IMG/VR virus record: IMGVR_UViG_2529292834_000008
Coordinates: 1 to 14,504 of that record
From: a virus
Taxonomy: Duplodnaviria > Heunggongvirae > Uroviricota > Caudoviricetes
Length of the DNA stretch: 14,504 bases
Reading direction: 5' to 3' (one strand)
Shown here: piece after piece, positions 1 through 3,000 of the stretch
How the letters are laid out: every line of letters begins with the position of its first letter
Position numbering within the stretch: the stretch's first letter is position 1
Position numbers: made by a program

Positions 1-3000
1 CGGAACGTTATCGTTCACACGGACCGTGGAGGCCAGTACTGTTCAGCAGATTATCAGGCGCAACTGAAGCGGCATAATCTGCGTGGAAGTATGAGCGCAA
101 AAGGTTGCTGCTACGATAATGCCTGCGTGGAAAGCTTCTTTCATTCGCTGAAAGTGGAATGTATCCATGGAGAACACTTTATCAGCCGGGAAATAATGCG
201 GGCAACGGTGTTTAATTATATCGAATGTGATTACAATCGGTGGCGGCGGCACAGTTGGTGTGGCGGCCTCAGTCCGGAACAATTTGAAAACAAGAACCTC
301 GCTTAGGCCTGTGTCCATATTACGTGGGTAGGATCATCCACCCTAAAACTATGACCAAGTATGAGATCGTCATCGTAACTACAATTGCCGTGAATATGTA
401 TGATTTGCTCGTCTGGAACGGCATAGATCTGCTGCAAGGTATTTGTATAATTAAATGAAAAATAGATGCTTTCTCTTGGTATGGGCGGGATGTATTGCTT
501 AGGATTGTAAGCATCGGCTATGTTAATCCCTTTAACCCAATCAGCGAATTGCTCCTTCAAACGAGCTGACAGCATTTGTGTGATTTTATTTACTTCATAT
601 TGGTAATCGTGATGATAAGCATCGCTCCAATCATCGGTATTGTATGAAGCCAAAAATATCTCACTGTTTTGAAGGATAAGCTCATAATCAATTTCACCTA
701 AAGCATTTTCTAACTCATTCCACTCGTCCCCAGCAGGAATGTATTCTTCTATCGCGTCATATAGATCTTGGTCATTTTTTTCTACATACGACTTAAAGTG
801 CTTGTATCCTGTTGGTAAGCCATGACGCATGTCAAATCCATTTCCTATTATGTAAAGCCTCATTGTTTTTCCCTTAGTCGAATTGTATAAAAATACTAAC
901 ATGGCCTGCTCCACGTTGACTACTATCCCCTCCTTTGAGTAATGCCTTCATCAGATGTAACAACATTTGCGAGCTTCCACAGTTCGCTCAAAGCGGACTA
1001 GAAGGTTAGCTTGCGTCGGACTTGGCGTATTTAAAGAAGTGCTGGTGGAGACTGGTTGTTGTGTTCCATTTCTACAGAACAAAATCACAGAAACTATACC
1101 CAATAGTTATATTGAATCAATGATGAGACAGCCTCATATTTATCAGGACTGGTGTACGTCCAATACAGGAGGTTGTCGTGCTGGTTCTCAAATGTGCGCT
1201 AGCTATTGCGGCTGTAATGGCAATTTATTGTCTTGCTGTTGTTCTTACGGATCGCCTTTCTGATTGATTTTATATTGGCGAGGTGACGTGAGTTAAGTAG
1301 AATTGCTGCGGGTGCTTGAGGCTATCTGCCTCAGGCATGAACACCAAAAGGCAGATAGAGAAAAGCCCCAGTTAACATTACGCGTCCTGCAAGACGCTTA
1401 ACATTAATCTGAGGCCAATTTCATGCTAGACACATGTAGGTTAGCCTCTTACGTGCCGAAAGGCAAGGAGAAGCAGGCTATGAAGCAGCAAAAGGCGATG
1501 TTAATCGCCCTGATCGTCATCTGTTTAACCGTCATAGTGACGGCACTGGTAACGAGGAAAGACCTCTGCGAGGTACGAATCCGAACCGGCCAGACGGAGG
1601 TCGCTGTCTTCACAGCTTACGAACCTGAGGAGTAAGAGACCAGGCGAGGGAGAAATCCCTCGCCACCTCTGATGTGTCAGGCATCCTCAACGCACCCGCA
1701 CTTAACCCGCTTCGGCGGGTTTTTCGTCGCATAATGAGGTTGTAATTTTAGCTACCATTAGACTATCCTAAGGATCTCAAACAGATCTATTTTGCATCAA
1801 ATTTGGTGCATGGCTTTGCCAATAATCGGAAAACAAAAGGACTCATTAGTATGAGCTGCCCACTCAAAAAACACACGCGGTTGAGTATTCCGCCTCGCGA
1901 TAAAAGCGTTGTGGCAGTCCCTCGCCCAGCGATTGATGAAAACTGCGCACATCGTGAACAAGTGAAAAATGCTTTTGATTTCGGTTTTTCTCGTTATGAG
2001 AAAGCCATGGAAGAACTTTCAAAAGTGTAATGATGGGTATTGTGCTCTATGGCTGAGATTGTTGAAGGAGTGCATTACCTTACGGTTGATGATCTTGTTG
2101 AAATCAATCGTTCCCTAATTGAATTACAGACGCCAGATGAGCCCGTTGGTGTTCTGAGTCCAGATAACTTAAGTTCTTCTCAGGCCCGTCCCAGCATGGT
2201 TCGATGGTATGAACAGACTAATGACATGTTTGTACTGGCATCGGTATTGATTGAAAGTCTGATTCAGAATCATCCGTTTGCTAATGCGAACAAACGAACA
2301 GCTATGATGGCTGGTTACGTCTTCTTGTTGTTGAATGGCTATGAGTTAACAGCACCAGGCGATGAAATCGTGGAAATGGCAGAGGGACTGGCCTGCAAAA
2401 CCTATACTCGAGAAGATCTCGAGAACTGGTTGTGTTATTGGTCTCGCGCGTATGACAGCCGGGAATTATGTAAAACAGGCGCAACTATTGTTTTGTATGA
2501 AACTATCAAGCTTAAAATAGAACAGCAAAACTAAAGGTGCTTCCAATGAAAACCCGCTTCGGCGGGTTTTGTTTTTTCCTGGCATTCTGGTTTACAATTC
2601 GCACGCCAGCCTGAACAACTGGCACCTGCTGCGCCAGCAGAGACAACCGATGGCGCACAAAAACAAATTTCACAATTCTGATACCGACCTTGCCATCCGG
2701 CACGGGCGGCGTTCACACGCATTTAAAACCGACTGGTACCAACACCCACCATGTACTGAAGAACAGGCCGAATGGCTAATTCATAACTACCGCAGGCGCG
2801 GATACGAGGTTAAGAAAGCCCTCAGCCTCGATTATCGTCACTGGATAATCTATGTCAGGCTCCCTTATTCCGAACGCCCACCGCGTCCGTCCCGCACATT
2901 CCAGCAACGCATCTGGAGGTAACGTGCGGGTATTACTTCGACCTGTTCCGGTACCGGAACTTGGGCTGGTGGTGCTAAAACCGGGCCGTGAATCCATGCA

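Follow-up and report, generated by a model that had tools for sequence, protein, structure and literature searches.

A probable Doc toxin–antitoxin cassette with a 59-residue partner protein, bounded by copies of the hok terminator in a lambdoid Escherichia coli prophage

We analysed a stretch of 14,504 nucleotides (nt) from a virus of the Caudoviricetes (IMG/VR virus record IMGVR_UViG_2529292834_000008, positions 1 to 14,504), referred to below as the window, which is part of a lambdoid Escherichia coli prophage. Its nin region contains a cassette of two genes: a small open reading frame (ORF) of 59 amino acids (aa), followed by doc, which encodes a Fic-fold toxin of the Doc family. The pair is probably a genuine Doc toxin–antitoxin (TA) moron, whose antitoxin keeps a Doc-binding helix without a recognisable DNA-binding fold. 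It would be a self-contained type II module, placed between the hokD terminator and the DUF968, RusA and Q genes, in which the 59-aa protein acts as the cognate antitoxin of Doc. The cassette has the following parts.

1704–1723, plus strand: left copy of a 20-nt direct repeat, AACCCGCTTCGGCGGGTTTT; hok terminator stem-loop and left cassette boundary.
1740–1769, plus strand: candidate weak sigma-70 promoter, with a putative -35 TTGTAA (1740–1745), an 18-nt spacer and a putative -10 TATCCT (1764–1769).
1765–1775, no strand assigned: perfect 11-bp palindrome ATCCTAAGGAT, candidate operator, overlapping the -10.
1773–1787, no strand assigned: inverted repeat GATCT-CAAAC-AGATC, candidate operator, just after the -10; the candidate operator region as a whole is 1765–1787.
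1793–1810, no strand assigned: imperfect 18-bp palindrome TGCATCAAATTTGGTGCA, about 45 nt before the start codon of the small ORF.
1851–2030, plus strand: small ORF, candidate antitoxin, 59 aa; ATG at 1851, TAA at 2030, Shine-Dalgarno (SD)-like AAGGA at 1837–1841.
2049–2534, plus strand: doc, 161 aa, Doc-family Fic-fold toxin and predicted EF-Tu kinase, matching TIGR01550, Pfam Fic and phrog_577.
2271–2303, plus strand: catalytic motif HPFANANKRTA, Doc residues 75–85, read from the sequence.
2549–2578, plus strand: cassette terminator, a hairpin (2549–2570) followed by a T-run; it holds the right repeat copy (2551–2570) and marks the right boundary.

Both genes have the same orientation, with the candidate antitoxin gene first and 18 nt between it and doc. 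The initial annotation began the module at 1803. This position is an upstream in-frame TTG that belongs to a 75-aa version of the ORF; the 59-aa form starts at the ATG at 1851 and is also the one called by PGAP (WP_001277774.1, 'hypothetical protein'). A near-identical prophage in E. coli O6:H16 strain 2014EL-1346-6 (99.4–99.6% identity over the compared stretches) has the same genes according to PGAP.

On sequence grounds, the assignment of the toxin as a Doc-type Fic protein is secure. The protein scores above the cut-offs of TIGR01550 DOC_P1 (128.5 bits, cut-off 38.65; E=1.5e-37) and Pfam Fic (46.6 bits, cut-off 24; E=6.6e-12), and it also matches phrog_577, 'Doc-like toxin' (E=1.8e-51). 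The initial annotation, which had called it a Doc/Fic toxin carrying HPFANANKRTA, was correct on this point, and the motif is intact. The segment H75-P-F-A-N-A-N-K-R83 fits the Doc signature HxFx(D/N)(A/G)NKR (PMC13034048). Residues H75, F77, N79, N81, K82 and R83 are invariant among 26 homologues from many Enterobacterales, and across genera the catalytic motif is joined by 55 other invariant columns. The nearest solved chain is Doc of Enterococcus faecalis (9VZC_A, E=4.7e-13), followed by P1 Doc (E=5.6e-5). By homology, the kinase would phosphorylate EF-Tu and thus arrest translation; the protein is presumably toxic.

The small ORF and doc are strictly associated. We fetched 79 genome loci starting from Doc, 33 of which are gammaproteobacterial; the reciprocal search started from the small ORF in IMG/VR contigs. 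A homologous ORF of 55–59 aa ends just before doc in all 33 gammaproteobacterial loci. These cover Enterobacterales, Orbales, Pseudomonas, Halomonas, Kushneria and Marinobacter, with Doc identities down to 38%. In the reciprocal direction, doc lies 7–18 nt 3' of the small ORF in 80/80 viral contigs, and the two genes are kept together in all 113 loci examined. Of 5,426 complete E. coli genomes, 125 have the cassette, always on the chromosome and with 87–100% identity; O104:H4, O121, O103 and O157 strains are among them. The pair also occurs in prophages of Salmonella, Yersinia pestis and Pseudomonas aeruginosa, and it adjoins the integrase in the temperate Pseudomonas (P. aeruginosa) phages Sirocco and LPPA56. 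It follows hokD in every E. coli example inspected; among viral contigs, hok lies just upstream in only 38 of 73.

Purifying selection acts on the small ORF. In comparisons with orthologues of other genera, the proportion of synonymous differences (pS) is 0.7–0.9, which is near saturation, and that of non-synonymous differences (pN) is 0.15–0.32, with values of 0.06–0.21 for residues 34–59. Between E. coli alleles pN/pS is 0.10–0.12. Since pN/pS stays within 0.10–0.40 overall, the small ORF is a genuine gene. Could the cassette nevertheless be a decayed or domesticated remnant that rides with hok, Doc being no longer toxic or the small ORF dispensable? The SD-like sequences of the window are weaker than those of other genera (AAAGTG compared with AAGGTG), the promoter is weak, and the P. 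aeruginosa PAO1 member has a frameshifted toxin (Fico and Mahillon 2006, PMC1626090), all of which would fit such decay. We nevertheless regard it as improbable, given that both genes are intact and under purifying selection, that the catalytic motif and the 55 further Doc columns do not vary between genera, and that the pair is never separated in the loci examined and occurs at 87–100% identity in the 125 E. coli genomes.

The partner belongs to a family with no assigned function. The exact protein sequence is present on 835 contigs, and public sources name it only as a 'hypothetical', 'uncharacterised' or 'bacteriophage' protein. Its sole family match is PHROG 2208, 'unknown function'; no Pfam, NCBIfam (E<=1) or PADLOC family matches it, and PADLOC assigns neither cassette protein to a defence system. 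In the PDB, neither the single 59-aa sequence nor a profile of 26 members retrieved more than chance matches (ribosomal S25, TPPP). When 1.84 billion cluster representatives were searched exhaustively with a profile, only 38 clusters of the family at 50% identity came up, nearly all of about 50–60 aa. Given these few clusters and the 33/33 and 80/80 pairing, the family is, as judged from sequence, narrow, specific to Gammaproteobacteria and obligately tied to one Doc clade.

The absence of a recognised antitoxin domain would also suit a small protein of another kind, such as a regulator, a chaperone or a leader peptide, with Doc held in check by a host Phd, an antisense RNA or prophage transcription. 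PGAP calls a minus-strand ORF across the 3' end of doc, and transcription from pR in lytic growth covers the region of the cassette; both are points in favour of this idea. However, an upstream site, a small size, a gap of 7–18 nt and strict co-occurrence make up the classic antitoxin signature (criterion of Makarova et al. 2009). The C-terminal helix described below maps onto an experimentally defined Doc-binding segment, and Rfam detects no RNA family within 1724–2570. A role other than that of antitoxin is therefore highly improbable. The co-occurrence, the disordered predicted N-terminus and the upstream palindromes lend indirect support to a type II antitoxin.

The small protein appears to consist of a tail and a helix. 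Residues 1–33 are basic and proline-rich and contain a conserved IPPRDK motif; AlphaFold2 gives them no secondary structure (pLDDT 62–70). A single amphipathic helix is predicted for residues 34–57 with pLDDT >90 (HREQVKNAFDFGFSRYEKAMEELSKV). In the 13 nearest relatives, R16-D17-K18 of the IPPRDK motif and nearly all of E36–V59 (EQVKNAF.FGFSRYEKAME.LSKV) are invariant or nearly so. Because the N-terminus is only 33 residues long, there is no room for a Phd/YefM, AbrB or ribbon-helix-helix (RHH) domain. The initial annotation had reported no Phd/YefM or RHH features, and family and profile searches together with AlphaFold2 agree: no features of Phd/YefM (PF02604), RHH, AbrB or YhfG were found in the small protein. 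PF04014 matches neither the window protein nor four distant family members. The inhibitory motif (S/T)xxxE(G/N) of the YhfG/VbhA type was also considered; it is absent from the 59-aa sequence, and there is no YhfG family match.

The C-terminal helix, in turn, resembles in sequence the Doc-binding segment of Phd-type and AbrB-type antitoxins. Distant Doc relatives from Streptococcus, Listeria and cyanobacteria carry upstream antitoxins of the AbrB/MazE type, and the Symploca and Listeria partners match PF04014 (E=1.8e-7 and 6.1e-6). Their C-termini (...LDEYDQAFRGLVDR, ...KKRYGNTLKTLAE) resemble the end of the small protein (...FSRYEKAMEELSKV). With hhalign, the small family pairs with the AbrB-type antitoxins end to end over its last 17 columns (P=6e-4, probability 28%), and the AbrB-type antitoxins pair with Phd over their C-terminal halves (P=2e-5, probability 77%). 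The direct comparison of the small family with Phd is not significant (P=0.03, probability 1.6%). The Streptococcus partner found no PDB match by sequence search.

The Doc-binding segments of two antitoxins have been defined by experiment. The neutralising peptide of Salmonella Phd comprises residues 52–73, with hot spots F56, I59, M60, H63, L67 and L70 (PMC9207808). In the E. faecalis structure 9VZC, the part of the AbrB-like 'Phd' that is visible on Doc is limited to residues 52–79, which form a bent helix; residues 54–78 are given by the peptides HQKKLQQMMEN and SKQKHNELYKELVT, and joint alanine substitution of H54, K56 and K57 disturbs the Doc dimer (PMC13034048). Using these published peptide sequences for E. 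faecalis Phd, we aligned the three proteins without gaps, anchored at their C-termini, an arrangement that is a matter of judgement and carries no statistical weight. In this alignment, window residues F42, F46, Y49, M53 and L56 fall on Salmonella Phd F56, M60, H63, L67 and L70, which are five of the six hot spots. All five window residues are invariant or nearly so in the 13 nearest relatives, and all three antitoxins end three residues past the last Leu. H34, at the predicted start of the helix, falls on E. faecalis Phd H54, and H34–K58 aligns gap-free with residues 54–78, within the Doc-bound segment. This correspondence is what a shared Doc-binding helix would predict.

The region upstream of the small ORF contains promoter-like hexamers and palindromes. 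The candidate promoter has a counterpart at the same position in a diverged E. coli allele (TTGTGA-18 nt-TATGCT, with a different spacer sequence), and other genera have clear promoters there, for example TTGACT-17 nt-TATAAT in locus L004. In the O104:H4 allele, GCTAA-CAACA-TTAGC replaces the GATCT-CAAAC-AGATC of the window; the arms are altered and the inverted repeat is retained. The sequence of 1765–1787 resembles that of an operator but might instead form a 5' RNA hairpin. Perfect palindromes with arms of at least 7 occur upstream of the small ORF in 52% of 27 loci, compared with 8% of shuffles; some of these are upstream terminators. Three Providencia/Morganella loci (L004, L006 and L010) have strong promoters, TTGACT-17 nt-TATAA(T/C/G), some 70–95 nt before the small ORF. 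Inverted repeats of the form TAATG(T/A)A...T(A/T)CATTA fill their promoter spacers and show compensatory arm changes between species, and they are, from sequence, the clearest candidate operators of the family.

It is possible, though rather doubtful, that the small protein is a full antitoxin-repressor, residues 1–33 forming a new minimal DNA-binding element that acts at the palindromes with Doc as co-repressor. The element could be, for example, a dimer-paired β-hairpin, RLSI-PPRDK-SVVAV, perhaps a remnant of an AbrB/Phd β-strand, and the operon could show conditional cooperativity; this more specific form we likewise consider unlikely. In different genera, palindromes often lie over promoter-like hexamers in front of the small ORF; two E. 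coli alleles both have a symmetrical repeat after the -10, although its arms differ; and the N-terminus is basic, with R16 and IPPRDK conserved. MAFFT places M..ALKK..R..IP beside the AbrB-type start M..LKR.TRK.G.S..T.P, and hhalign pairs IPPRDK with the EITRRG hairpin of Phd, at only P=0.03. On the other hand, AlphaFold2 gives no strands in residues 1–33, the N-terminus has no significant profile match to AbrB or Phd, and 33 residues are fewer than in any characterised antitoxin DNA-binding domain. In addition, the operator-like palindromes vary, whereas the N-terminus varies little.

Several observations also weigh against the interpretation that we prefer, a Doc TA moron with a helix-bearing antitoxin. 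The contrast between upstream palindromes that differ among genera and a fairly conserved N-terminus argues against a simple one-protein, one-operator scheme. No sigma-70 promoter scores above the scan threshold in the cassette region, and TTGTAA-18-TATCCT lies below it. The likeness of the helix to known antitoxins is short, with low hhalign probabilities (28% for the AbrB type, 1.6% for Phd), so it may reflect convergence of amphipathic helices. Binding to Doc and neutralisation by the helix are themselves predictions from sequence and modelling. For Doc itself, AlphaFold2 gave an all-helical model from 26 close homologues with a mean pLDDT of 50.5, which is too poor for an inspection of the binding groove. 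Finally, the conservation of IPPRDK is left without explanation by the helix model.

With these points in mind, the Doc TA moron can be pictured as follows. A weak promoter, over which short palindromes lie, probably drives both genes as one transcript. This would end at the copy of the hok terminator, which scores as an intrinsic terminator (9-pair stem, 4-nt loop, T tail). Translation of doc is probably coupled to that of the antitoxin gene. The last sense codons of the latter (AAA GTG in the window; AAG GTG, then TAA, in most genera) form an SD-like sequence 13–18 nt ahead of the doc ATG, which suggests such coupling. An 8-codon mini-ORF (2030–2056), overlapping the antitoxin stop (TAATG) and the doc start, occurs in E. 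coli only and was not taken as a feature. The antitoxin helix H34–K58, about 25 residues, would be the counterpart of the bent helix of Phd- and AbrB-type antitoxins and would occupy the same groove of Doc. The short N-terminal tail is predicted to be unstructured on its own. The operon may be autoregulated, and its role may be prophage addiction, phage exclusion or both.

We tentatively suggest that the family could represent a minimal class of type II antitoxin, consisting of hardly more than a toxin-binding helix and a short disordered tail, without a folded DNA-binding domain. Its ancestor might have been an antitoxin of the AbrB or Phd type that underwent reduction. In that case, the operon would either not be autoregulated by the antitoxin or be regulated through a new short motif, IPPRDK. 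Alternatively, IPPRDK could be a degron or a second inhibitory contact that reaches the active site of Doc. Such a pair would make a portable addiction or phage-exclusion cassette of lambdoid and P2-like prophages, swapped at terminators.

The boundaries of the cassette are marked by an exact repeat. The 20-nt sequence at 1704–1723 recurs at 2551–2570 with 100% identity and in direct orientation, 847 nt apart, so that the cassette amounts to 827 bp of cargo and one repeat copy, 847 bp in total. In the L082 prophage, which is 96–98% identical on both sides, there is one repeat copy and nothing between hok and the 90-aa ORF that follows the cassette in the window. Because the repeat flanks the cassette and is present once at this empty site, the cassette is best described as a moron, probably gained, or lost at empty sites, by recombination at the terminator sequence. 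The proposal in the initial annotation that the terminator nearly duplicates that of hok, as expected from cassette shuffling, thus holds, the repeat being exact. In the near-identical prophage, a 63-aa hypothetical protein (WP_001394303.1) is called on the minus strand at 2512–2703, across the 3' end of doc and the terminator; the call is probably spurious, and a similar one is made at the empty site.

Other prophages carry different cargo at the same point. In locus L083, where the right repeat is intact but the left one degenerate, a hypothetical protein of 130 aa is encoded; L085 and the Qin prophage of K-12 have rem; CFT073 has about 300 nt without an annotated gene. Alternative TA modules, which the initial annotation had suggested looking for in homologous prophages, do occur: a RelE/ParE + helix-turn-helix (HTH) module is found on the opposite strand in L084, and in O104:H4 the doc cassette, between two repeat copies, stands directly ahead of such a module. 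The position just past the hokD terminator is a real cargo-exchange site. The idea of a hot-spot for TA swapping is thus supported as far as this site is concerned, but not by the example given for it, Qin relBE. The gene order in Qin is relB-relE-hokD-rem-ydfU; relBE lies upstream of hokD and hence not at the insertion site of the cassette, and it is rem that occupies the equivalent position.

The neighbouring genes show further accessory functions. To the left of the cassette, the window contains, in order, an IS3 transposase fragment, a truncated AbiH gene and hok/sok. Rfam identifies sok at 1310–1485 (122 bits); position 1635 is the end of the Hok ORF (PF01848, E=3e-23). With hok/sok directly before the doc cassette, type I and type II modules are stacked in the window, and O104:H4 adds the RelE/ParE+HTH module as a third. 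The AbiH-family gene (306–914, minus strand; PF14253, E=6e-48) covers only positions 1–183 of the 260 in the profile, and a C-terminal fragment of an IS3-type transposase (91–306; rve_2, E=7e-22) directly abuts it. From this partial match and the adjoining fragment, the defence gene looks truncated by the insertion sequence. To the right of the cassette follow the 90-aa ORF, DUF968, RusA, Q, a Ser/Thr kinase with a PP2C phosphatase, a DNA methylase and four tRNA genes. The 90-aa ORF (2650–2922), just before DUF968, belongs to phrog_1212, which has no assigned function, and stays next to DUF968 whatever cargo follows hok. It had been described as Rem-like; it has no similarity to Rem, and we rejected that identity. 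The eukaryote-like Ser/Thr kinase (Pkinase, E=2.8e-33) and the PP2C phosphatase that overlaps it translationally (E=2.1e-14) occupy 5101–6680, directly after the antiterminator Q. An N6/N4 DNA methylase gene (E=2.1e-44) and, after it, the cluster of tRNA genes lie within 7248–8656. ARAGORN recognises all four tRNA genes (anticodons CAT, TTT, TTT and TCC), Rfam three. In the near-identical prophage, PGAP labels the CAT tRNA as tRNA-Ile.

Doc toxins are EF-Tu kinases tied to persistence and to plasmid and prophage addiction, and their inhibition by Phd-derived peptides has been explored as an antibacterial approach (PMC9207808, PMC13034048). The present family offers a natural antitoxin with a predicted ~25 functional residues and could reveal how much of an antitoxin suffices for neutralisation and regulation. 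Its curation would correct the annotation of many seemingly orphan Doc toxins. The exact duplication of the terminator provides a clean example of how morons, including several TA modules, are exchanged at one prophage site. These findings do not overturn the current understanding of TA systems; the noteworthy remainder is the minimal antitoxin architecture, together with the conserved IPPRDK motif.

The family has been aligned before. Fico and Mahillon 2006 (BMC Genomics 7:259; PMC1626090) sorted the ORFs upstream of Doc/TasB homologues into ten groups. Their 'group 2' comprises five gammaproteobacterial loci, from S. Typhi Ty2, Y. pestis CO92/KIM/91001 and P. aeruginosa PAO1, the P. aeruginosa member being smaller; the treatment was computational, without structure or mechanism. 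In the alignment of this group (Additional file 3), which reads ...H..QVKNAF.FGF.RYEKAMEELSKV, the S. Typhi (...SHTGQVKNAFEFGFARYEKAMEELSKV) and Y. pestis (...THADQVKNAFAFGFSRYEKAMEELSKV) rows match the window protein, and the Y. pestis locus was also found independently in our search (L005). Group 2 is the same protein family and is likewise restricted to Gammaproteobacteria. New relative to that study are the setting in a prophage, the cassette ends at copies of the hok terminator, the size of the family (38 clusters) and the helix-only architecture. The initial annotation had raised the possibility of a novel antitoxin. That the protein is an antitoxin is very likely, and it is uncurated, but its alignment in 2006 and the known type of its helix make the family uncharacterised rather than unrecognised. 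Searches of the available literature turned up no experimental work on the family, whose Y. pestis member is NP_405398/NP_405399, with the possible exception of Goulard et al. 2010 (Y. pestis TA loci; J Bacteriol 192:3669), and a literature search by accession numbers or PHROG id returned nothing. The phd-doc locus of D. dadantii (PMC8198452) and Salmonella Phd-Doc (PMC9207808) were considered as prior characterisations and set aside, as both have canonical Phd antitoxins.

Makarova et al. 2009 give Phd, AbrB/MazE, Xre and YhfG as the known partners of Fic/Doc toxins, and judged by its sequence the small-ORF family belongs to none of these. One close parallel is Phd-Doc of P1 and Salmonella (PDB 3K33; PMC9207808). 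As in the window pair, Doc carries the kinase motif and the antitoxin gene lies upstream; in Phd-Doc, neutralisation is by the C-terminal helix of the antitoxin, with five of whose hot spots the window helix residues coincide in the ungapped alignment. Unlike Phd, the window antitoxin lacks the Phd/YefM N-terminal fold (no PF02604) and has 59 aa instead of 73. Sequence similarity to P1 Doc is modest (E=5.6e-5). The window Doc has 161 aa instead of 126 and carries a conserved extra C-terminal segment (W127, W131, R133, D136).

The AbrB/MazE-type systems with Doc (TasAB; E. faecalis, 9VZC) provide the nearest solved Doc, and their antitoxin C-termini are those that align end to end with the small family. 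Dimerisation of Doc by the antitoxin has been proposed for the E. faecalis system (PMC13034048). The window protein differs from these antitoxins in lacking the β-sheet AbrB-like DNA-binding domain of about 50 residues (no PF04014 match). The class I Fic modules FicT-YhfG and VbhT-VbhA likewise have a small helical protein upstream of a Fic-fold toxin and share a distribution specific to Enterobacteria/Gammaproteobacteria, but the window toxin has the Doc NKR motif and not the AMPylating GNGR motif. In its genetic setting, the cassette resembles the lambdoid morons and nin cargo next to hokD, such as relBEF-rem of Qin, with the same promoter-gene-terminator layout between conserved phage genes. 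The interval from hokD to DUF968 holds rem in Qin and the doc module in the window, where the ends of the cargo are the exact 20-nt duplication of the hok terminator.

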